Origin: a virus
Virus record (IMG/VR): IMGVR_UViG_3300033142_001406
Coordinates: 4,138-68,137 of that record
Length of the DNA stretch: 64,000 nt
Direction: 5' to 3' (one strand)
This document shows positions 31,839 to 44,594 of this stretch, in pieces. The notes under the pieces are model-generated. The model was given only the letters and a program-made list of their open reading frames with translations. It did not search any database and was not told the origin of the DNA. Within the stretch, counting starts at the first letter, position 1; each line of letters starts with the position of its first letter. The translations under genes and the position numbers were made by a program.

Positions 31839-34800
31839 ATGGATCAAAAAGACCTTATAATCAATCTGGCCCGCCGTAATAATTTCGACCTTGAAAGAGC
31901 ACTTAACGACGGGCACTCTTACGAGGATATTTTAGCGTATTTGCAAGAAGAATCGGGAGTTACCGGAGAAAGGCCAGAAGGAGATCCCGGTTTTATCGGC
32001 GGCGTAAAGGACTTCGGACTCGGTATCGCCAGAGGCGCTCTTGTCTCTCTACCGCAAAAAGTGGGACAGACATTCCAGCGTTGGGATGACGAAGGTGGGG
32101 ATGACACTCTCCGAGATTTAGGAATCTCGCTTGAAGAAACTGGAGACGAGAATCTCCAAGAACAACCTTGGCTTCAAGAGTCCCGACTGTCTATAGAAAA
32201 ACGGCAAGAATCCCCTTGGAATATACGAGGCTGGGGTTACTCAGCCGGGGACAGTCTTATTACCTCACTCGCCCCGGCAGCGGTGGGTGCGGCGGCGGTA
32301 GTCGCGGGGGCACCCGCAGCGGTGGGGGTTGGTATCGGTGTTGTAACGGTCGGTGCTTTATTCTACGGATCGGAAGCAGAACAAACCTACAGACGTGCCC
32401 TCCCAGAACTCGGGCACGAAGAAGCGTTAGAATTGTCCAGACTAACCGGACTGATAGAAGCCGGGGGAGAGATCGTTGCCGACCTTATCCCGCTCTGGTT
32501 TTTTAAAGCACTTCCCAGTCCCGCCAGAAAGAATATCCTCAAAGCCCTTACCTCAAAAAAAGGTGTCCGGGGGATTATTTGGGATATTATTAAAGTTGAG
32601 GCCCTTGAAGTCAGCACTGAAATAGGGCAGTCTACAGCGCAAGGATTAGCCGAAGAAAGATTCGGTATGGGGGACCAGCCGCTACTTGATAACGCTTTAG
32701 CCGTTATCGGTCCGACCCTAATTGTCGGCGGTCTGTATGGTACAGCCGGATCTGTCGGCGGTAACGCCCGACGTAGCTGGATGGTGGAAACTCTTAAAGA
32801 TCCCAAAGCTCCGATAGAAGATAAACGGAAGATTATAGCGGAGATAACCGAAGCAGTTACGAAGAAAGACGCGGAGCTGGGTGCTGCTTTTTCGAAGCAA
32901 GCAACCGCCCTTGCCGAAGCTAAGAAGCCCGTTCTGATTGGGGAGGATAGTAAGTACGAAAGTAAGAAAGAAACTAAGCAAGAGAGTAAGAAAGAAAGAG
33001 AGATAGTAAGTAAGCCAGAGGCAGAGATAGAAAGAGAGACGGACGTTCAGAGAGGGGCGTTAGATACTAATTTTATTGCAGATCCTAACGATAGTCTCCA
33101 AGTCCAAAATCAAAAAAGAATACGCGGGATAGTTGGACCGGAGGCAAAGGGGAGCACCACTTTTGAAGATACGTTAAGCGACGGTTCTGAAAGACCCGGA
33201 GTAACCCCCTCCCAATTCAACAAGGGATTATCAGAAGAGGTTCTGAAAAACCACTTTGAGGCTGTTGGAAAACAGAAAGAGGGTGAGGCATCCCGAAATC
33301 AAAGTATGCTTATAAAGCGTTTTAATTATACGCTTAACCGCTTTAAGCAGCTTGTAAAGTATAAAGATACTTACGCTTATTCTCTCCAAGAAATCGGGGA
33401 TCAATACGAGCAAGCACTCCAAAGTACCAATTTAAGAGATCTTTCTTCAACAAGGGATCTGTTCACCCGACTACAATCCCAAGAACAAAAAATAACTGAG
33501 GTTGACCAGCAACTTATCAAAGCTGCTGAAGACCTCCTCTCCCTTGGGGGCGAGACTAAATCAGTTGACCAGCAGACTTTAGCCCGTATTCAAAAAGAGA
33601 TAAATCCAGAGACTTTAAAGCAACAAGCCGAACGAAGACAACAGCTTATCAACGACGCGCAAGAGCGTGGAAACAAAGTTCTTCAAGAAGCTGAATACAA
33701 AAACTCCCCGGAGTACGCAAAGGAAGTTGACAAAGAAAGACAACAGCAAGAAGCGGATCAGATTAAAAAAAGACAAGCCGAAACCAAACAAGCCGCCGAA
33801 GCTAAAAAGAAGAAAGACGAGCATACCAAAGCTATAGACGACCTTTACGAGAAAACCAAGAAGAGACTCTCCGAGTCTCCCGTATTTTTAAGAAACGAAG
33901 ATCTGTCCAAGCAGATCCTAAACGCTATTCACACCGAGCGGTTGGGAGCTGCCGAAATTGAGCGTGTTATCCGGCAAGCAGAGTTAAATCGTCTGGAAGA
34001 GAGTGGAACTCTCCAGAGTATCACCGAGATGATAGAGGACAAACAATCACCCGGCAAAAAAGACAAAGGCGCAATAGCGCGGGGTGTTGTCCAGCAAGAC
34101 AAAGACAAGGCCCAAGCAGCCAAAACAAGGGCTGCTGACAAAAAGACCCAAGAAAAAGCAGACGAGGTAACGGAACAAGAACGCCTTGGAGCTGCTGCAA
34201 TAAAGCGCCGTGACTTAAAGGGAAGATTAAAAGATAAGTACGGTACCAAGAGGCAAAGGAAGAAGGATGTTGAAGCGGCGGTAAAAGAAAAACAAGAACA
34301 AGATCAGAAGGTTGAGGAGCTTGGAGACGAAAAGGGTAGCACTCCCAAGAAGCCGAAGAAGAAACAAACTCCTCCTCCGAAAAAGAAATCTGCCCTTCGG
34401 GTAAAGCTGGACGATAAGAAGAAAAAGAAAGAGGAGCCTAAACCAAAGCCCCCCAAGAAGAAAAAGGCTACCCCCGTTGAAAAGAAAGTTGTAACCCCAA
34501 GGGTTACACCACCGAAGAAGAAAACCGTTACTGACGCAGCTAAAAAAGAAGCAGCGGCAGAAAAGAAAAGAGAAGCCGCCGCCAAGAAATATCAGGCCAA
34601 CAAAAAGAAACGAGAAGCTGACGTTGACGAGAACAACCGCCTCGTCCAGAAGGGCAAGGAGCTGATCCCGACGATCCGGCTCGAAGATGCGCGGGAAGTC
34701 GGAGAGATGGGCGAACTTCTGGAGAAGGGAGAGATCACCCCAGACGAGTGGGACTCTTTTGTTGAGCGGATGTTCAAAGAGAACCGAGCAAAAGGTAAGA

Positions 34801-37800
34801 TTAACGAGGCTTTAGGAGACCCGAAAAGAAAGAAAGCCCCACCCAAAGACCCACACGCTAAACTGTTTAATAAGAAGAAAACAATCGAAGTTTCCGGCCA
34901 CACCTTTACCGCGCCGAAGTACAACAGCACCCAAGGGGAGTGGTACACCGAAACAGAGGGTCGTCGGTTTGTTTTAAGAAAGTCTCCCCCGGAGGATGCT
35001 ATTGCCCGTCAGTGGTTTGTTCGGGAATTTGACTCCAACAACCCCTCAACGACAAGGGGTGAACAGCTTGTCCCGGACAACACCAAAAAAGCCTCTCTCC
35101 AGTTTGTCGTTGACGAGTACCTAACTGATAAACCTAAAGATCCCACCGAAGGTGGGAACACTCCAAAAGGTAAAAGGCCGATAAAGGATGTTAAGACGAT
35201 CCTAAAAAAGAAGAAAGATTTACCAGATAAGGACAACAGATTCAAGAAGACAACAAAAGAGGAAAACTCAACCGCAGAAGGGCAGAAGGGGATGTTTGAT
35301 ATAGCCCAAGCAACTGGACCCCTCCGGGGGATGGTTGCAGCTATCGAAAAAGCCGGGGGGATTTCCCCGGTAAGTTTAAAGGAGATAGATAATATCTCTT
35401 CTGAAAAAGAGCTGGACGACCTACGTGAGACTTTGAGAGTAGCTTATAACAAATCGCTCAAAAAACCAGAGTCAAAACCTTCTAAAAAAAAGAGAAAGAA
35501 AGACGAGCGAACTTCTGAAGAGATTCTACTTAATAAAGGTATTGCGGCACTAAACAAAGTTGGTAAAGCTCAGAAAGAGGAGTTACTTGGTAAGGTTGAC
35601 GCAGAAATCAAGCTGCTTGAGACTTCGGATGTCTACTACGAAAAAGAGCTGGTAATCAGTCTCGATAATTCTCCAACCTCCTTCACCTTTTACCGGGAGA
35701 ATTTCTATAAAAAAACAAATAAAGATGGGTCCAAAGAAACAGTTAAAGTAACTATGCTTGACGCTTTAAAGGAGTTTAAAAAGAAGCTGACCGCGACCAG
35801 CTTTAACGCAGACAGCCCCTATAAAAAACCCCCAGTACAAAATACGACAAGTGTTACAGCTCATATTGAAAAACGAGCGTATAAAAAGAAAACACAAAAA
35901 CCAATACCCCCAAAGGGTAAATATATTCAACCAATATACCAAGACGGGTTTTATTCAAACAGACAATATTTAGTTAAGATGGACGACGCGCCCAGTGTGG
36001 GAAAGCTCCCGTATGCTACTGGCAAAATAAATATGGAATCTATTTTATCTACGACGGGACTTGAGGAAGTTACTCTCGGAAAAGAGTATCTTGACACCCG
36101 ACTTATTCACGATCCAGAATCTCCGATAGCTGCCCACGACGCTGAAAGCGTCATACACGTTGAATTTGAGGATGGAGATCTTAAGCACTATATATACAAG
36201 ACTACGTATATCAACGCCATCCTCACCGAGCACCCCAAAGCAACCCCAAAGCTTCACCCCCCTACCGGGATGCTGAAGTTTTTTGACGGGTCTGAAGAGA
36301 TTGTCGGAATTACGATGCCCGTTGGGAATAATCTTAAGGTCGGTAGTACAACGGGCCTAATACCAGCAATAAAGGAGGAGCTGGGTATAGATCCTACTGA
36401 CCCAGCTCATATGGCAGAGTTTGATAGGATGAGGGCAACTGAGTTTAAACTTAATAAGATTTATAAGAAGACCGGAGTACGGTATCTTGCTGGACTCCCA
36501 AGAGGCACTTGGTACGATCCAGCAGGTAAAGAAATTATAGGCAAGCAAATATCTGAACTGACAAACCTTTCTCACGCAGAGGTAGAGGGTATCGAGAGTT
36601 TGGGCAAGCTCAGTATGAAACTGGGTGGGAGATCCGATAAATACAGCCCACTACAAGTCGCAGAAGCGCTCTATAACGCGGGTATGAGTGGGAACAAGGG
36701 GTTTGCAAGAATCCCCCGAAAGAAGCGCACCTTTATTACCAACGGGGATGACGTGTTTGAAATAAGAGATTCGGGGTGGGGGAATCCTCTCGTATTCCCA
36801 GTGGTAAGTGCCGGACACTTTACCCTTTCCGACGAGCAGATATTAAGTATTCAAACCGAGTATAAAGAAAAAGACCAGCAGACCTTTACAATACCAGATA
36901 ACCCCGACGTTTCCTTTACAACTGGTCAAAAAACAAATCAGAACCCGATTTCAGAAACCCAAATAAAACAAGCCTTTAAGGGCCAATCTGTCATATTGAC
37001 GGGCAAAAAAACTTATTCAGTTCGCTTCCAGAATGGACGCGGAGCGACTATAAAAATCGTAGACCAGACCCCCGAAGGAAGTGTTCTAATCGAAGCCAAA
37101 GGCGGGGTACTTAACCGGAACGGCCAGTTGATCGCCGGAAAGCAGTACGGAACGACAATCGAGCTTGTTGAGGGTGTGGCTACCGAAGACGTGCTCACGC
37201 ACGAAATACAGCACCTTTTAGAGCGTATAGGGGTAGTAACACCCGCAGACGTTAAAGTGCTGGACAAGGCCGTAATAAGGGCGTCTAAACGTAACAAACT
37301 TGCATACGAGTTGCACTCAGACCCAAGGGAGAACCGCGCTTACTTCATCCAGCAGCTTATCAGAGAAAGAAAGGACGGTCGGGGGACCGTCACTGGGAGA
37401 GTAGTACAAAAGATAAAAGACTTCTTCTCCAAGCTGGCGAAGAGTATATTCGGTATTGAGTCTGCTAGTAATATAGCAAGAGAACTGGAGAGTGGCGAGA
37501 TTTTTAAACGAGAAGCTATAAAACAGCAAGAACTACCAATCTCCACTGAGCAACCACTTTACTCCACCGTAAACGGGTTTGACCACCTCAAGATCAAGTC
37601 AACCGCAACAAAGGCAATCCGTAATACCAATATGGGCAAGAAGTCCCTCTGGGACAATATTAAAGATACGAAAGACTTTATTCTCGGAGATATAAAGGGA
37701 AACGCGAAGAGGGGTAAGAACCACTTCGTAGAGCAATATCTCGATAGATATAAGTATCTTAAGACTGTTGTTGGTGAGCACTTAGACGAGATCGGGGTTA

Positions 37801-40400
37801 AGCTTTCCCCCGAAGAGGACCCCTATAAAGCCCGTCGTATGATCGCAGCCCTTCCTCAGATTATGGGCGGCGTGTTCCACGACGGCCTTATTCTGGAAGA
37901 GAACGGTTGGGTAGCTTACAAGAAGGAGCAGGACCCGGAAGAGGGTGAACTCCGGGGAGGAGTTCTTTCCGTCTTCGAGGCGCTGGGTGATTCAGCACCC
38001 GCGTTTAAGCTTCACTATCTCGCTAACTCAGCTCAGTTCCTTTTTGACAACAAGGAGGTGTCGATTGGTAAGAAGCTGTTTGGTGTTGATCCAGAAACTC
38101 CCGAAATCTTTAGCGATTCTGCTGGTAAGATGGTACCTAACTATCTTGATACTCAGACTGTTATTGACGAGCTGCGGGAAGCGACAAAGGAAGAGTGGGA
38201 CGCGAACAAAGACCTCTGGAAGTCGGCTGAAGATAGGCTGCAAGAGATAAACGATTCAGTACTCCAGTTCGCGGTTGATACTGGAGTGATTAAAGCAAGC
38301 TCAGTTCCCCAGTGGAAGAGGGAGTTCTATTTACCCTTCAACCGGATGGCTGAAGACTTCCTTGGGGATGCCTATAAATCAATCATTCCCCGCTCAAAGG
38401 GTAACACCGTAGGCGGTATCAAACACTTAAAAGGATCGAAGATGTCAATCGGAGATCCTATCGAGAATCTACTTACAAACTACACCTATATAGTAAACGA
38501 GGGGATAAAGAACCAAGCCAACACCAAACTCTATAAAGCTTTGGAAAAGGCTAAAATTAAAAACGATCAAGGGCAAGAAGTGAGTGTCTTTGAGGTTAGG
38601 AAAGTCGGCAAACCAGAGAATATAAGAGTTAGAGCTGGGGAGGTAAACAGAGGCTTAAACAGTTTACTCACCAGTATGGGATTTGACCCCAGCAAGCTCC
38701 CGAAGGGTACCCGAGATTTTTACGTTGATATGGTGAATATGGTGAGTCCTATCAACGAGGACGGGGTATTTTCTATTAAAGAGAAGGGAGTCTCAAAGTT
38801 TATCAAGACCAACGATCCCCACTTGTTTGAGGTATTGGCTGACGTAAATAACGAGGCTATTACAGCCAGCTTTATTAAGATGCTATCGGCCCCTAAACGT
38901 CTGTTAACACTGGGAATTACAGTGAATCCCGCCTTCAGAATTGCTAACTTACTGAGGGATGTTATCCACTCAAAGATTATCTCCCCCAACTTCAAAATAA
39001 GTGGAGTGGCGAAGGCTCTCCGGGACGTTTGGAACGAGCACCCGGAGTATCTTGAGATGAGAGGGATAGGTGGTGCTTTCAGCGGGGGCTGGCACACCCA
39101 AGATGCTGGAAAGACTATTGATTCTGTTATCAATAAGGGGAAAGGAGATAAAGGAAAGGGTGTCCTCTTAAGTATGTGGGATGCTTGGGAGAAGGTTGGA
39201 GAGGCAGCAGAGAACGCCTCCAGACTTGCTCTTTATCGGGAAAACTTAGCAGACGGTAAGTCAAAGTTTGCGTCTGCTTTCGAGTCGCGTGACTTGATGG
39301 ACTTCAGCAATCGTGGACGCGGCGCTTTGGCTCAACATCTTATTGCGCTTGTCCCCTTTCTCAACGCCCACGCTCAAGGGCAGTACAAATTTGCTCGGGC
39401 AATCAGTGAAGAGGAGACCCAAGAACACGTTATTAATACCGGGTTGCTGCTGACCGTCTTAGCATCCACTTTGTTGGCAATCAACAGAACTGGTAACGAG
39501 GATGAGTGGGAGGAGCTTGAGACCCACGAAAAGTGGCAATACCTCCACTTCTTCGGAACGGAGAAACACTACCGGGTACCGCTTCCTTTTGAAGTGGGGC
39601 TGCTGTTCGGAACGGTTATCCCGGCTACGCTGGATATGGTCTTAGACGCTAAGGACGAGCCTCTTGGCGAGGCTATCTGGGATTATACGAAGTTTCTTGG
39701 ACAAGCCTCCTTCGGTATTTCACTTGTTCCGCAAGCATTCAAACCAGCAGCCGAAGTCTACAACAACAAGAATTACTTTACTGGTAGACCTATTGTCAAC
39801 CCCAGTATGGAAAGAAAGGATGAAGTAGATCACTACGATCAGTACACCAGCGACACGTCCCGGATTGTTGCGAAGGCAATTGAGGGGCTTTCGGAAGTCT
39901 CTCCAAAGAATATAGATCACCTTGTCAACGGATATTTCGGCTTTGCCGGAAGATTTGGGCTACTGGCCCTCGACGGAATCCTCAAGCCTTTCAGTGACTT
40001 CCCGGTTGAGCCAGCCGCCAGATCGGAGCACCACTGGTTGACCGGGGTGATACTCGGGTCCGGCAGATTTCGAAGAGACAAGAACCCGAAGCATACTAAG
40101 TATGAGACTGCTTATTACGAGCTTGTAAACGAAGTAGATCAAGTTATCAACTCCCTCAACGGGTATAAGAGCAGCAGAGATTACGAGACGTATAAGAAGT
40201 ATATGAGCGAGCACCGCGAGGAGTACCTCAACCACAACAAGCTGAAATTATTTACCAAACAAATACGGAAGCTGAATACCAGAAGGAAGATTATAGCTAA
40301 GAACCAGAAGTTATCCCCGGCAGAGCGCCGGAAGCAGCTCGACGAAGTATTCAAGAAGCGAACGGAGGTATTCAAGCAAGCTCTTGAAAGGATAAGATAA
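31839..40400 (+). CDS. Large polyvalent / ejection protein (2853 aa), LPD38-like C-terminus
   Basis: N-terminal hydrophobic glycine-rich helices, Lys-rich middle, THEIQH zincin-like motif, C-terminal NPAF...NLLRD, DF...G, VPFLNA..QG, RVPLPFEVG, N.NYFTGRPIV. Confidence 0.75.
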   Translation: MDQKDLIINLARRNNFDLERALNDGHSYEDILAYLQEESGVTGERPEGDPGFIGGVKDFGLGIARGALVSLPQKVGQTFQRWDDEGGDDTLRDLGISLEETGDENLQEQPWLQESRLSIEKRQESPWNIRGWGYSAGDSLITSLAPAAVGAAAVVAGAPAAVGVGIGVVTVGALFYGSEAEQTYRRALPELGHEEALELSRLTGLIEAGGEIVADLIPLWFFKALPSPARKNILKALTSKKGVRGIIWDIIKVEALEVSTEIGQSTAQGLAEERFGMGDQPLLDNALAVIGPTLIVGGLYGTAGSVGGNARRSWMVETLKDPKAPIEDKRKIIAEITEAVTKKDAELGAAFSKQATALAEAKKPVLIGEDSKYESKKETKQESKKEREIVSKPEAEIERETDVQRGALDTNFIADPNDSLQVQNQKRIRGIVGPEAKGSTTFEDTLSDGSERPGVTPSQFNKGLSEEVLKNHFEAVGKQKEGEASRNQSMLIKRFNYTLNRFKQLVKYKDTYAYSLQEIGDQYEQALQSTNLRDLSSTRDLFTRLQSQEQKITEVDQQLIKAAEDLLSLGGETKSVDQQTLARIQKEINPETLKQQAERRQQLINDAQERGNKVLQEAEYKNSPEYAKEVDKERQQQEADQIKKRQAETKQAAEAKKKKDEHTKAIDDLYEKTKKRLSESPVFLRNEDLSKQILNAIHTERLGAAEIERVIRQAELNRLEESGTLQSITEMIEDKQSPGKKDKGAIARGVVQQDKDKAQAAKTRAADKKTQEKADEVTEQERLGAAAIKRRDLKGRLKDKYGTKRQRKKDVEAAVKEKQEQDQKVEELGDEKGSTPKKPKKKQTPPPKKKSALRVKLDDKKKKKEEPKPKPPKKKKATPVEKKVVTPRVTPPKKKTVTDAAKKEAAAEKKREAAAKKYQANKKKREADVDENNRLVQKGKELIPTIRLEDAREVGEMGELLEKGEITPDEWDSFVERMFKENRAKGKINEALGDPKRKKAPPKDPHAKLFNKKKTIEVSGHTFTAPKYNSTQGEWYTETEGRRFVLRKSPPEDAIARQWFVREFDSNNPSTTRGEQLVPDNTKKASLQFVVDEYLTDKPKDPTEGGNTPKGKRPIKDVKTILKKKKDLPDKDNRFKKTTKEENSTAEGQKGMFDIAQATGPLRGMVAAIEKAGGISPVSLKEIDNISSEKELDDLRETLRVAYNKSLKKPESKPSKKKRKKDERTSEEILLNKGIAALNKVGKAQKEELLGKVDAEIKLLETSDVYYEKELVISLDNSPTSFTFYRENFYKKTNKDGSKETVKVTMLDALKEFKKKLTATSFNADSPYKKPPVQNTTSVTAHIEKRAYKKKTQKPIPPKGKYIQPIYQDGFYSNRQYLVKMDDAPSVGKLPYATGKINMESILSTTGLEEVTLGKEYLDTRLIHDPESPIAAHDAESVIHVEFEDGDLKHYIYKTTYINAILTEHPKATPKLHPPTGMLKFFDGSEEIVGITMPVGNNLKVGSTTGLIPAIKEELGIDPTDPAHMAEFDRMRATEFKLNKIYKKTGVRYLAGLPRGTWYDPAGKEIIGKQISELTNLSHAEVEGIESLGKLSMKLGGRSDKYSPLQVAEALYNAGMSGNKGFARIPRKKRTFITNGDDVFEIRDSGWGNPLVFPVVSAGHFTLSDEQILSIQTEYKEKDQQTFTIPDNPDVSFTTGQKTNQNPISETQIKQAFKGQSVILTGKKTYSVRFQNGRGATIKIVDQTPEGSVLIEAKGGVLNRNGQLIAGKQYGTTIELVEGVATEDVLTHEIQHLLERIGVVTPADVKVLDKAVIRASKRNKLAYELHSDPRENRAYFIQQLIRERKDGRGTVTGRVVQKIKDFFSKLAKSIFGIESASNIARELESGEIFKREAIKQQELPISTEQPLYSTVNGFDHLKIKSTATKAIRNTNMGKKSLWDNIKDTKDFILGDIKGNAKRGKNHFVEQYLDRYKYLKTVVGEHLDEIGVKLSPEEDPYKARRMIAALPQIMGGVFHDGLILEENGWVAYKKEQDPEEGELRGGVLSVFEALGDSAPAFKLHYLANSAQFLFDNKEVSIGKKLFGVDPETPEIFSDSAGKMVPNYLDTQTVIDELREATKEEWDANKDLWKSAEDRLQEINDSVLQFAVDTGVIKASSVPQWKREFYLPFNRMAEDFLGDAYKSIIPRSKGNTVGGIKHLKGSKMSIGDPIENLLTNYTYIVNEGIKNQANTKLYKALEKAKIKNDQGQEVSVFEVRKVGKPENIRVRAGEVNRGLNSLLTSMGFDPSKLPKGTRDFYVDMVNMVSPINEDGVFSIKEKGVSKFIKTNDPHLFEVLADVNNEAITASFIKMLSAPKRLLTLGITVNPAFRIANLLRDVIHSKIISPNFKISGVAKALRDVWNEHPEYLEMRGIGGAFSGGWHTQDAGKTIDSVINKGKGDKGKGVLLSMWDAWEKVGEAAENASRLALYRENLADGKSKFASAFESRDLMDFSNRGRGALAQHLIALVPFLNAHAQGQYKFARAISEEETQEHVINTGLLLTVLASTLLAINRTGNEDEWEELETHEKWQYLHFFGTEKHYRVPLPFEVGLLFGTVIPATLDMVLDAKDEPLGEAIWDYTKFLGQASFGISLVPQAFKPAAEVYNNKNYFTGRPIVNPSMERKDEVDHYDQYTSDTSRIVAKAIEGLSEVSPKNIDHLVNGYFGFAGRFGLLALDGILKPFSDFPVEPAARSEHHWLTGVILGSGRFRRDKNPKHTKYETAYYELVNEVDQVINSLNGYKSSRDYETYKKYMSEHREEYLNHNKLKLFTKQIRKLNTRRKIIAKNQKLSPAERRKQLDEVFKKRTEVFKQALERIR
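32949..33014 (+). repeat. Degenerate 4-bp-periodic repeat, copy 2 (inside the CDS)
   Basis: AGTAAGTACGAAAGTAAGAAAGAAACTAAGCAAGAGAGTAAGAAAG...AGTAAGTAAG. Confidence 0.65.
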
Positions 40401-40702: not shown

Positions 40703-41218
40703 TCAAGACGATTTCCAGCCGATAGTTCTCATTCGGTGTTCGTCGTTTGTAAGTTGATCCTCGTTGACGACAGCGGTTGGTCCCAATACTGGGAGACACC
40801 TCCGCTTGTTTACTACTGCGGTTGATCTGGCAGTACCAGCGTAGCTTACCAGAAATACTGCCTCCAAATATCCCCTAAAAAGCAGCTCCTCTATATAGTT
40901 TTTCACCGAGCCGTAAGGAATATGTTTGTTATATTGCTCACTTACACCCAGATCCTTCACTTTAAAAGGGCGGGTGTGGTAGATCTGCCAAAGTAAGAAG
41001 TACTGTTTTTCGGTGAGATCGCCGGGGCACTTCTCGGGGCAGAACCCCGGAGTTGCGCCCTCCACCGCGCCCTGCAACACTTCCCTTGCCCTATCCGCGA
41101 CATCTTTTCTGGACTCCTTAGTCACTACCTCCTCCAATCTTTTTCGCGCCTCTACGGTTCGCAAGTCGTCCCGGTCCTCTCTGCCCACTTTTGTTGATTG
41201 TGCTCGGGATAATACCAT
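40703..41218 (-). CDS. ParA partner, putative centromere-binding wHTH protein (start revised to ATG 41218)
   Basis: GGAGG SD; charged N-terminus; C-terminal LTEKQYFLL...IPYGSVKNYIEELLFRGYLE. Confidence 0.55.
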   Translation of the reverse strand: MVLSRAQSTKVGREDRDDLRTVEARKRLEEVVTKESRKDVADRAREVLQGAVEGATPGFCPEKCPGDLTEKQYFLLWQIYHTRPFKVKDLGVSEQYNKHIPYGSVKNYIEELLFRGYLEAVFLVSYAGTARSTAVVNKRRCLPVLGPTAVVNEDQLTNDEHRMRTIGWKSS

Positions 41219-42017
41219 ATTCGTCCTCCAGTAATTTAATAAATTCAGTTGCCAAATCTCTAAACGCTTGAGTTCCTTTAGAATTTCTCCCAAACTCAAA
41301 GATACTTGATTTTCCGTTATACTCTGAGTCCTCGAAGCCAGCACACTTCGGAATAAGAGAATCAAACACCACAGCTTCTCCGAATCGGTCGTTCAGCTTC
41401 GCGATATTAGCTTTGTGAACAGTCCGCCGTAGATCCACTCTGTTTACTACTATCCGCAATAGCTTAAGCGTATCGTTCCCCGTATCTTGTACCGCGCTCA
41501 TCAACTTCAGAACTCCACTCACTCCTTTAAGGGAGTTGGCTGATCCAGCCAACATCGGAATCACAACGCAATCAGCAGCGTACAGAGCGTTAGAAACGCT
41601 GATTCCGAGTGTCGGTGAGCAATCAATTAAAGTAACGTCGAAATTATCCCTTGCAAAATCCCTAACCTGCTGTTTTAAATAGAAATTGCTGTTCGGATAT
41701 TGCAAAGCTATCGGGACCTCAAGTCCGGTAGTTTCGGTCACGTTCGGGAGTATTTTGATATTGTTGTGGATTGTATTGTAAATACAATCTTCAATCGGGG
41801 GCTTCCTTAACTGATCCGGGTCAAGTAACTCATACAGACAATTATTAATTTCCTTGTCCGGGTCGCGCATAAGCGCGTCCGTAGAATCTGCTTGCGGATC
41901 GTTGTCAACCACCAACACTTTCAACCCTCGTCTCGCCAGAGCTGACGAAAGATTGATCGACGTCATACTTTTTCCCGTCCCCCCCTTATAATTCGCGATA
42001 GCGCATATTATTCCCAC
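41118..42017 (-). CDS. parA: ParA/Soj family partition ATPase (start revised to GTG 42017)
   Basis: Deviant Walker A KGGTGKS, VDNDPQ, LIDCSP; AAGGAGG SD. Confidence 0.9.
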   Translation of the reverse strand: MGIICAIANYKGGTGKSMTSINLSSALARRGLKVLVVDNDPQADSTDALMRDPDKEINNCLYELLDPDQLRKPPIEDCIYNTIHNNIKILPNVTETTGLEVPIALQYPNSNFYLKQQVRDFARDNFDVTLIDCSPTLGISVSNALYAADCVVIPMLAGSANSLKGVSGVLKLMSAVQDTGNDTLKLLRIVVNRVDLRRTVHKANIAKLNDRFGEAVVFDSLIPKCAGFEDSEYNGKSSIFEFGRNSKGTQAFRDLATEFIKLLEDEYGIIPSTINKSGQRGPGRLANRRGAKKIGGGSD

Positions 42018-42066
42018 TGCGATCCTCCTTTTTTTGTATATTTGTTTGCAATCCACAATATATACA

Positions 42067-42125
42067 ACATACGCGGCGCGTATGTCAATATATTTGTTGA
42101 CAATTCCACCCTATCCGCTTATAAA
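42067..42125. promoter_or_regulatory. Divergent promoters with a palindromic operator
   Basis: + strand TTGACA(42097)-17-TATAAA; - strand TTGACA at 42088; palindrome ACATACGCG-G-CGCGTATGT at 42067-42085. Confidence 0.7.
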
Positions 42126-42164: not shown

Positions 42165-43250
42165 ATGACAAATCAGAGAACAACAAAGCTTGAAGGGTAT
42201 ACCGGAGTGTACAAGTACGCGTGTTCTGACGGTCGGATTGCGTACCACATACACTACGACAGTTCCCGGAAACTCGCGGGTTATAAAGATGAGGGCTGGA
42301 CTCCAGAAAAGGCTCAAGCGGAGAGAACGCGCCGGATGGACACGCGGAGAGAGTTCAGTAAAGCAGCGAAAATCGAACGGTTTGACGACGCAGCCGAGGC
42401 GTATTTTCGGTGTATGGTCGGAAACGGAAAGACGGGGGAATCAATCCGAGTGGCCAGATCCCGGTACGAAAATCATATTCGACCGCTTCTCGGTTCTACC
42501 AATTTAAAGAACGTAAGTGTTCAGAAAATCGAAGATCTGAAGTTTGATTGGGCAAAGAGGGGTTTGACTGATCTGAACAAAGCGTCTGTATTTACGACAC
42601 TTTCAGCGATAATCAACCGAACATACGCAAACGGGGACTGGCCGTCAACGAAGAATCCGCTTGCTTTCGTCCAAAGGCTAAAGTGTGAGTCCCGGAGGGA
42701 GCGCGCCCTTTCTTTCGAGGAGTACGAGAGGTTGCGGAATATGTTTAAAACGTTTGACGACCCGCTTTGCTTGACCGTCTTCGAGATAGCTATTTATACC
42801 GGGCTTCGGGGTTCGGAGCTTGAACAGCTCCGTTGGGAAGATGTAGATCTGGACAACGAATTCTTGACTGCCCAAACTAAAAACAAGAACGTAAAACAGA
42901 AAACCCGCAGAGTTCGACTACACCACAAGGTGGTCAACGCCCTCTACGCGTGGATTGAGGAAACCGGAGAGATTGGCCCCTCTGAATTAGTATTCCCAGA
43001 AGGTTTACCAAAGAATACAATCAAGAAAACTATCAGTATGCTTAGTCTTAACAGAGGTTTAGAACCCAACTCAAAAAAGCGAGTGACCTTCCACACTTTC
43101 CGGCACACCTTCGCAACTTGGCTTGTTCTCCAAGGTGTTGATATTATTACACTTAGAGATCTGCTGGGACACCACTCCGTTACGATGACGGAACGTTATA
43201 TGCACCACGCTCCGAGTGCCGGGGACGAGGCTGTATTAGCACTTAAATAA
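42165..43250 (+). CDS. int: Tyrosine recombinase / integrase (start revised to ATG 42165)
   Basis: TGLRGSEL, HTFRHTFATWL, LLGHHSVTMTERY catalytic motifs; N-terminal arm-binding-like domain. Confidence 0.9.
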   Translation: MTNQRTTKLEGYTGVYKYACSDGRIAYHIHYDSSRKLAGYKDEGWTPEKAQAERTRRMDTRREFSKAAKIERFDDAAEAYFRCMVGNGKTGESIRVARSRYENHIRPLLGSTNLKNVSVQKIEDLKFDWAKRGLTDLNKASVFTTLSAIINRTYANGDWPSTKNPLAFVQRLKCESRRERALSFEEYERLRNMFKTFDDPLCLTVFEIAIYTGLRGSELEQLRWEDVDLDNEFLTAQTKNKNVKQKTRRVRLHHKVVNALYAWIEETGEIGPSELVFPEGLPKNTIKKTISMLSLNRGLEPNSKKRVTFHTFRHTFATWLVLQGVDIITLRDLLGHHSVTMTERYMHHAPSAGDEAVLALK

Positions 43251-43261
43251 AGGGAAGTAGA

Positions 43262-43603
43262 ATGACAGAGGAAGTATATCAAGAGATGAAAAAGGATCTT
43301 AAAAATCTTTGCAAAAAGATAGCGAAAGATTACGGGATAAAAGAGGGGGTTGCTGAAGCTATTTTAAGCTTGAGTGCTGACCAGAATATTATTGCTAACC
43401 GTTTGGTACGCGGAGCAACCTCGCTTATAAATACCGCAATAACTGGAGAAGATGGGGTGGGTGAAACCAGAGATATCGAGAATAATATCACGGGGATGCT
43501 CGAAGACTTATCTACTTATATTGAGAGTTGTGTGAGAGTCGGTTTGATGAAAGAGCACAACAAGATAATCGAGCCACTGTTCAGAATAGAGACAGAAGAT
43601 TAA
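43262..43603 (+). CDS. Hypothetical protein
   Basis: 113 aa, follows int on the same strand. Confidence 0.7.
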   Translation: MTEEVYQEMKKDLKNLCKKIAKDYGIKEGVAEAILSLSADQNIIANRLVRGATSLINTAITGEDGVGETRDIENNITGMLEDLSTYIESCVRVGLMKEHNKIIEPLFRIETED

Positions 43604-43608
43604 ACGAG

Positions 43609-43635
43609 AAAAGGCCAGCTCGAAAGCTGGCCCTT
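43609..43635. terminator. Terminator hairpin at convergent transcripts
   Basis: GGCCAGC-TCGAAA-GCTGGCC with a flanking A/T tract. Confidence 0.7.
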
Positions 43636-43712
43636 ACCCACTAACATCTTTTATTAACTAACCGATCTTGGCAGCTTACCTATAACACTTCTCAAATATA
43701 ACTTCAACAAGG

Positions 43713-43975
43713 AAAACCACCCCAAGGTGACCAAGAAGGGTGGTTTTTACTTGGTACTTAACTTGTAGATTACCACTGAGTAAAACCTAAAAAGGATTTA
43801 CTTTGCTGATCCTCAAGATTCCGGGCTTTTATTTTACGTAGGAGCCACTGTCTCTCTTTAAACGCCCACGTAGTACGAAACAAGAATACAGTAACGCTAT
43901 AAGAACCCCCCGCCCTGCACAACGCAGGGTGGAAGGCGTGGACCGATTTGAGTCGAAGCTGGGTAAGCGACAACC
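43713..43975 (-). ncRNA. Candidate small RNA with its own promoter and terminator
   Basis: TTGACT(44010)-17-TATGGT promoter; internal hairpins; terminator at 43713-43748; contains copy 2 of a repeated structured motif. Confidence 0.45.
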
Positions 43976-44015
43976 AAAATCACCATACCTCTTATACTAT
44001 CAGAAGTCAATAGGC

Positions 44016-44056
44016 AAAAAAAAACCCCACCTACTCGCCAGAGTAGAAGGGGTTTC
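44016..44056 (-). terminator. Intrinsic terminator downstream of hicB
   Basis: AAACCCC...GGGGTTTTTTTTT on the - strand. Confidence 0.7.
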
Positions 44057-44153
44057 TCTCTAAAAATTGGACAAATCTTAGATATTATAGATTCCTAGCT
44101 TTTATTTTGAGTAGGAGCTAATACCTCCGTGGGGTGCCTACTTCGCGCCTCGC

Positions 44154-44432
44154 CTAGAGTGTAGAAATCGGGATAATAAAAGTATCTTCTACTACTACGT
44201 ATTGTTTGTACAAAGCCGTAAACTCTTTGTATTGATCGTAGAAAGCCGCAAACACTGTTGGAGGATTTATAAAGACTGGTTCTGAAAGTTCTAAGTGATT
44301 TGTTAGAGCATCCCGCGCCATCTCTACGGCCTCTTCCATATCTTTCCCGCAAGTGTTGCAACCTATTAGATCTGGGAAGGCCACAGCAAATCCTTCTTCG
44401 TTCGATCTGACTATCGCGTAATAAGTTGCCAA
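44154..44432 (-). CDS. hicB: HicB-like antitoxin (N-terminal domain only, no adjacent hicA)
   Basis: YYAIV...GFAVAFPDLIGCNTCGKDMEEAVEMARDAL. Confidence 0.8.
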   Translation of the reverse strand: MATYYAIVRSNEEGFAVAFPDLIGCNTCGKDMEEAVEMARDALTNHLELSEPVFINPPTVFAAFYDQYKEFTALYKQYVVVEDTFIIPISTL

Positions 44433-44594
44433 TCTATTTCTCTTTCTCTTTGTGTGTGTGTGAATCAGTGACGTTTCAAGGCTCCCCCCAAGGTGCCACC
44501 ACGCCTTGTACTTCGCTATCGGCTCTCCGACAAGCCTCCGTAACGGAGCCGGGTGAAAGCACTTGACCTTGCACCGTTACTGGTAAAGTACGTA

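Follow-up and report, generated by a model that had tools for sequence, protein, structure and literature searches.

Small RNAs that end in an intrinsic terminator exist in bacteria and phages, and some of them are derived from 3′ UTRs. The preQ1-I riboswitch represents RNAs that adopt a small H-type pseudoknot. Paired cis-acting RNA elements are found just behind the early promoters of lambda (nutL/nutR) and HK022 (putL/putR), and lambda-type attP sites, which act at the DNA level, span ~270 bp. A further group is that of the type III antitoxins. These are described as tandem repeat arrays followed by a terminator and then, in the same operon, by an endoribonuclease toxin gene, and the antitoxin RNAs adopt pseudoknot folds (PMC5086642). 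Phage TE is reported to escape ToxIN via pseudo-ToxI (PMC5086642; PMC3475682).

The locus reported here is a duplicated non-coding element in a phage genome. It resembles ToxI/CptI/TenpI and pseudo-ToxI in the repeated non-coding units, the possible pseudoknot with an A-rich loop, the Rho-independent terminator, and the phage context. However, the copies are dispersed, no toxin gene follows the terminator, and the first loop is long and variable. The likeness to preQ1-I lies in a short hairpin with an A-rich 3′ tail capable of pairing into the loop, whereas the first loop here measures 17-18 nt, no regulated gene lies downstream, and a search of 471 nt against Rfam with E up to 10 gave no match. 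When riboswitches or attenuators in general are considered, an alternative pairing is found in copy 1 only, and there is no downstream ORF. As with nutL/nutR and putL/putR, two related RNA elements occur in one genome and their transcripts would meet terminators, but the elements of this phage sit at an operon end.

The stretch analysed (64,000 nucleotides, hereafter the window) corresponds to bases 4138-68137 of a 68,137-bp IMG/VR record, and positions are counted within that stretch. The record has direct terminal repeats, and the genome is estimated to be complete. The rightward genes are structural (terminase, major head protein, and others), and the leftward genes serve replication and nucleotide metabolism (family A DNA polymerase, DnaB-like helicase, NrdD, and NrdG). 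The two blocks meet in an accessory region, the features of which are listed in Table 1. The hicB-like gene closes the long leftward operon for replication and nucleotide metabolism; its product has the N-terminal HicB-like fold only, and neither a hicA partner nor a hicA-like ORF was found beside it. The major capsid protein shows at most 37% identity to that of any GenBank phage, and the best homologue of the integrase among the 5.8 billion proteins searched shows 37% identity over 49% of the query. Judged from its sequence, the phage is an orphan without close relatives in the collections searched.

Several other features of the genome were observed. Since a ParA ATPase (41118 on) and a tyrosine integrase (to 43250) are both present in a phage with direct terminal repeats, their pairing suggests lysogeny, either as a plasmid or in the integrated state. 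A 16-nt direct repeat (TATATTTGTTTGCAAT / TATATTTGTTGACAAT, 88% identical) is located at 42037-42052 and 42089-42104, in the divergent parA-int control region, and is a possible operator or partition site. A 2853-aa ORF occupies 31839-40400, and the last third of its product has ~25% identity to phage proteins annotated as methylase, portal, or hypothetical; in StenR_269, a distant relative, the giant gene found in this position carries the annotation virion-associated RNA polymerase. The leader of the hicB-like gene contains a (CA)n run and a low-complexity run of TCTCTT x3.2 (44433-44480, 44540-44580), and the interval that separates this gene from the DUF3310 gene includes an imperfect inverted repeat of 18 nt.

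Table 1. Positions of the genes, the two copies, their proposed helices, and the flanking signals (numbering within the window)
Feature	Position	Strand	Remarks
parA	41118-42056	-	accessory region
int (tyrosine integrase)	42165-43250	+	361 aa as called in protein collection; convergent with motif region
ORF113	43262-43603	+	no assigned function; between int and non-coding stretch
Non-coding stretch	43604-44153	n/a	550 bp; sole sizeable one beside int/ORF113
T3 terminator-like hairpin	43610-43635	-	11 pairs; just ahead of ORF113/int antisense
T2 terminator-like hairpin	43711-43748	-	T4 tail; ~70 nt past copy 2
Copy 2	43816-43872	-	within non-coding stretch
P1, copy 2	43871-43865 with 43842-43836	-	7 bp, one G-U
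Proposed P2, copy 2	43846-43843 with 43827-43824	-	4 bp
GC-rich structured stretch	43900-43975	-	upstream of copy 2; 121-nt fold z -2.47
Sigma-70-like promoter match	43982-44010	-	TTGACT, 17 nt, TATGGT; 9/12 consensus
T1 terminator	44016-44055	-	15-nt arms 44055-44041/44036-44022, 4-nt loop, nine T
Copy 1	44089-44143	-	starts 10 nt past hicB-like stop codon, in hicB-like 3′ UTR
P1, copy 1	44142-44137 with 44115-44110	-	6 bp
Proposed P2, copy 1	44119-44116 with 44100-44097	-	4 bp
A-rich linker, copy 1	44109-44101	-	within core
GGAATCT, copy 1	44095-44089	-	core 3′ end
hicB-like gene	44154-44432	-	92 aa; PF15919, E 7e-10

The initial annotation of this DNA had reported a duplicated structured RNA motif next to hicB. 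Both minus-strand copies were recovered with the same sequences and coordinates, their start-to-start spacing was measured as the reported 273 bp, and the gene upstream of copy 1 was verified to be HicB-like by its Pfam match (Table 1). The reported identity of the 3′ 30 nt (26/30) also holds: the differences are confined to the four N positions of the core pattern GCTCCTAC-NN-AAAATAAAAGC-NN-GGAATCT. With up to 3 mismatches allowed, this pattern has 2 matches in the window, none of 100 shuffles yields one, and in the whole 68,137-bp record it matches the same 2 sites only. The local alignment of the two units scored 48, as compared with 23.0 +/- 3.2 (maximum 34) for 200 shuffles. The homology spans ~70 nt, from within the loop to a common TTTTTAG, and upstream of this aligned part no homology was detected between the copies by local alignment. 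When a covariance model (R1) was built from the two copies and applied to the genome, only these two sites were found (78.5 and 74.2 bits), and the next match had E of at least 3.1. The differences are distributed unevenly: 4/30 in the core, 2/8 in the 5′ strand of stem P1, and 11/17 in the loop, the loop being more diverged than the core (Fisher p=0.0007). The repeat is thus genuine, beyond chance, and under uneven constraint. A 14-nt partial look-alike, AGCTTCGACTCAAA, occurs in the GC-rich structured stretch, at 43960-43947 on the minus strand, and matches AGCTCCTACTCAAA of copy 1 at 12 of 14 positions; it could be a decayed third copy or a chance occurrence.

P1 closes a loop of 21-22 nt, and a second helix, P2, has been proposed between this loop and the tail. 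In the 60-column alignment of the copies, the 7 pairs of P1 and the 4 pairs of P2 provide standard pairs in 21 of the 22 cells. Within P1, one pair is changed on both sides (A-U to C-G), another on one side (A-U to G-U), and a third forms in copy 2 only, while the changes in P2 consist of a single two-sided pair (A-U to G-C). The G-U pair of P1 in copy 2 can form only in minus-strand RNA; it forms neither in the plus strand nor as a DNA palindrome. The retention of these pairs was evaluated by a neutral simulation, in which substitutions were placed randomly on copy 1 (14 in the 29 5′ columns and 4 in the 27 3′ columns). All 10 copy-1 pairs are kept in copy 2, and this outcome was obtained in 0.10% of 200,000 runs, a value that refers to a structure chosen after both copies had been seen. 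For the single helices, P1 alone was kept in 1.7% and P2 alone in 8.5% of the runs. The shuffle control for covariation, when applied to two sequences, has no power (123/500), and the covariation stems from these two copies, no homologue having been found in the collections searched.

The folding energies were also examined. Folded in isolation, neither copy gains stability over its shuffled versions (z +0.84 for copy 1 and +0.33 for copy 2). P1 is a weak stem (-4.4 and -6.7 kcal/mol), and P2 by itself has marginal stability (-1.2 and -2.9). Competing helices are found, namely UUAGCU/AGCUAG (copy 1), UCCU/AGGA, and GGGC/GCCC (copy 2). The earlier statement that the differences between the copies preserve P1 is borne out by the double change and the G-U pair, which keep the stem; the minimum-free-energy fold of copy 1 does not use P1 as drawn. 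The loop-tail pairing can also form in both copies; it includes a single covarying pair and survives neutral divergence at the frequency given above. We regard P1 as reasonably supported, and an H-type pseudoknot formed via P2 as possible but unproven.

The signals in the flanking RNA were then considered together with the two copies. T1, T2, and T3 are three successive minus-strand terminator-like hairpins that lie within 450 nt, ahead of int antisense. T1, a strong terminator, begins 33 nt past copy 1, and T3 lies ~100 nt beyond T2; T3, which is beside ORF113, has a better T tail when read on the minus strand than when read in the direction of ORF113. The two copies had been described as being followed by similar terminators. 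Both T1 and T2 are indeed terminator-like and on the same strand, but they align poorly, with a 34-column gap. No ORF was found downstream of either terminator on the minus strand, and beyond them lie ORF113 and int in the antisense orientation. The sigma-70-like promoter match sits directly past T1, ahead of copy 2. It is a consensus match only, and such matches occur in the region at chance frequency (3 vs 2.4 expected from shuffles). The arms of T1 (CUUCUACUC / GAGUAGGUG, 44055-44022) closely resemble the P1 arms of copy 1 (CUCCUACUC / GAAGUAGGC, 44145-44109), and therefore the core can pair with the 3′ arm of T1.

Homologues of the element were searched for in Rfam, IMG/VR, the GTDB genomes, the JGI metagenomes, and the GenBank phages, and none was found. 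No Rfam family matched the element, even at E up to 10, where the best match (PyrR, 24.8 bits vs a threshold of 54) was carried by the terminator; at the gathering thresholds, the window contained only a tRNA-Gln, located elsewhere. The searches of the phage databases with the covariance model and the patterns were likewise without a homologue. In IMG/VR, two of the pattern scans gave 0 stretches, and one gave 14 stretches, which fall into 5 sequence groups and do not resemble the element in its upstream part; a further scan gave 15 stretches, among which the best R1 score was 17.5 bits. There were 8 R1 matches among the IMG/VR stretches, of which the top three were examined and the other five had E of 3.9-8.2. 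The stretches rejected as homologues were L046, which falls between two ORFs in antisense to a ribosome-binding site, L045, which lies inside a 527-aa ORF, and L034, which lies inside a 231-aa ORF. The core pattern was found in 4 stretches of the GTDB genomes, all of them chance-looking, and in 2 stretches of the JGI metagenomes, none of these being accompanied by the upstream half. The blastn search of the GenBank phages gave 15 records, each covering at most 5% of the query with E of at least 0.3.

Related loci were also sought through the neighbouring proteins. No related locus in IMG/VR was reached via the integrase, HicB, or major capsid proteins. NrdD led to 5 IMG/VR loci with 50-55% identity, all of which are without the motif, and R1 found the motif in 0/5 of a set composed of four distant GenBank relatives and one IMG/VR record. 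In the protein Atlas, which was consulted for host inference, NrdD fell in viral clusters only. Because no relatives were found, the pseudoknot and a role as an antitoxin mimic, both of which the initial annotation had put forward, are unconfirmed.

The reading that we tentatively prefer, to which we assign somewhat less than an even chance, is that the copies are a paralogous pair of minus-strand RNA modules, each consisting of a hairpin, a conserved A-rich single strand, and an intrinsic terminator. Minus-strand structured RNA is favoured because the stem is kept via compensatory and G-U changes, the loop rather than the core has diverged, and the terminator is on the same strand. In such a module, the P1 hairpin with its fast-diverging loop would come first, and the A-rich single strand with GGAAUCU would follow; the 3′ part would comprise an AU-rich hairpin region of lower conservation, with UUUUUAG at its end, and the intrinsic terminator after it. 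Copy 1 would be the 3′ UTR of the hicB-like gene, and copy 2 may form its own unit of ~265 nt behind the sigma-70-like promoter match. Both would be released as terminator-ended small RNAs or 3′-UTR fragments, and the 30-nt core, comprising the P1 3′ half, the A-rich stretch, and GGAAUCU, may serve as the binding surface for a protein or for a complementary RNA. The tail might fold back on the loop, so that the 4 bp of P2 stack directly on P1 to give an H-type pseudoknot.

The modules thus proposed are comparable to the terminator-ended small RNAs in that one copy is in a 3′ UTR and the other behind a promoter-like site, and in that each has a hairpin, A/U-rich sequence in single-stranded form, and a U-tailed intrinsic terminator. 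They differ in having no outstanding complementary site in the phage. As for Hfq-type trans-acting small RNAs, terminators are present here, but the targets within the phage are no better than those of shuffled queries: the best non-self duplexes reached -25.0 and -34.2, as compared with -24.0 to -30.6 for 6 shuffled queries. Other points against RNA modules are the stability of the motif, which does not exceed that of shuffles, the alternative pairings, the chance frequency of the promoter match, and the fact that the element lies where the attP of the neighbouring integrase is most likely to be.

The last point leads to the main rival, in which the two 30-bp direct repeats are arm-type or accessory-protein sites flanking the crossover core of the tyrosine integrase, that is, parts of attP. 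Next to int and ORF113 there is only one non-coding region of any size (43604-44153); it holds both repeats, and their span of ~270 bp is that of the lambda-type sites. They share with the lambda-type arm sites the direct orientation, this spacing, and the non-coding position beside a tyrosine integrase gene. In addition, the conserved blocks of 8, 11, and 7 nt, separated by 2-nt variable spacers, are placed about one helical turn apart around an A-tract. The integrase is predicted to carry ~65 extra N-terminal residues, modelled as two strands and a helix, before its core-binding helices, and these presumably have the place and size of an arm-binding domain. However, this part of the model has a pLDDT of 32-51 and no Pfam arm-binding family matches it. 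In 43250-44160, no short word of the sort expected for arm sites recurred three times or more, and a single two-copy repeat family was present; unlike lambda-type arm sites, the repeats are two copies only, each of them, at 30 nt, long for an arm site, with G-U-dependent complementarity and a tie to a same-strand terminator. A protein site fails to explain why a double change and a G-U pair have left the complementarity intact when the 17 columns in between diverged, and it leaves the same-strand terminators unexplained. Since the N-terminal extension may be arm-binding, while its model is of low confidence and without a family match, we keep attP as an unlikely reading that still carries appreciable weight. 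It is somewhat less probable that the copies are a functionless remnant, produced by local duplication of a segment with a 3′ UTR and a terminator at a convergent junction, and kept, as one part of this reading would have it, for no other reason than that a succession of three terminators shields int from transcription running leftward. The succession of T1, T2, and T3, the limitation of the homology to ~70 nt, and the lack of homologues in the collections searched are consistent with such an origin. Nevertheless, neutral decay should be even, whereas the core and the loop differ markedly (4/30 vs 11/17), the retention of the pairs is improbable under such decay, as the simulation indicated, and the terminators themselves are the least similar part of the units.

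The resemblance between T1 and P1 raises the question of cis-acting control, in which P1 or the pseudoknot would set the read-through of T1 and T2 into ORF113 and int antisense in the manner of a riboswitch or an attenuator. In copy 1, CCUACUC pairs with GAGUAGG of the T1 3′ arm at -12.3 kcal/mol, as compared with -7.6 for P1, the P1 5′ strand pairs with the T1 5′ arm at -8.9, and read-through RNA would be antisense to int. This reading is nevertheless improbable: the alternative pairing is lost in copy 2 (-7.3 vs -13.3 for P1), the minus strand has no gene downstream before parA, no riboswitch family was matched in Rfam, and the distance between motif and terminator varies (33 vs ~70 nt). Decoys of the type III kind, proposed from the start, were judged to be very improbable. 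As mimics or sponges, the pseudoknots would serve to neutralise either a type III toxin of the host or some other defence protein that binds RNA. Both copies could form an H-type pseudoknot with an A-rich loop, the element adjoins a solitary hicB-like antitoxin gene, and pseudoknotted type III antitoxins and the pseudo-ToxI reported for phage TE provide a precedent (PMC5086642; PMC3475682). But the copies are spaced by 273 nt rather than arrayed in tandem, and Tandem Repeats Finder detected in the region only a 6-nt TCTCTT run, away from the motif. There is no toxin gene downstream, and ToxN (PF13958) had 0 matches in the whole genome. PADLOC, applied to 8 neighbouring proteins, gave no convincing match (best E 0.00035, on ParA), and Rfam gave none for the element. 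Moreover, the ~58-nt unit with its 17-nt first loop is unlike the compact type III repeats that have been described (PMC5086642). The assignment to type III antitoxin-type RNA was thus not borne out, and of the claim of a structured RNA, what stands is that minus-strand RNA is favoured over coding or chance. Only a slightly greater weight, still a very small one, is given to a wider version, in which the hicB-like gene and the two RNAs together form an 'antitoxin island', with the protein as an antitoxin mimic and the RNAs as two diverged decoys. The least credible reading is that of a small coding region, in which the core encodes LL(L/R)KIKARNL in ORF67 (43973-43770, minus strand) and copy 1 is a decayed duplicate. 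Two of the four core differences are synonymous in this frame (GCU/GCC, AGG/CGG), but ORF67 has a TTG start with poor Shine-Dalgarno spacing, has no homologue and no Pfam or PADLOC match, and is absent from the called proteins; in copy 1 there are 10 open codons between stops, and yet the core is still 26/30 identical. On the plus strand, no ORF of at least 30 aa covers either copy, and a plus-strand promoter or ribosome-binding site was rejected, there being no ORF after AGGAG. A partition site was also rejected, as int and ORF113 separate the parA module from the motif, and so were iterons, for which no array was found.

With two copies in one orphan genome, the paired modules are at present a well-delimited candidate and not an established new class. 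If the antitoxin island were true, its decoys would titrate effectors of host toxin-antitoxin systems or other abortive-infection effectors that bind RNA, and they would do so as dispersed, terminator-ended units rather than as a ToxI-like tandem array. If the modules are real RNAs, they would constitute a new, so far lineage-restricted family of phage small RNAs. Their locus is the junction of the replication operon and the integrase/ParA module, beside a solitary antitoxin-like gene, and it is at such junctions that counter-defence or lysogeny-control functions tend to gather.
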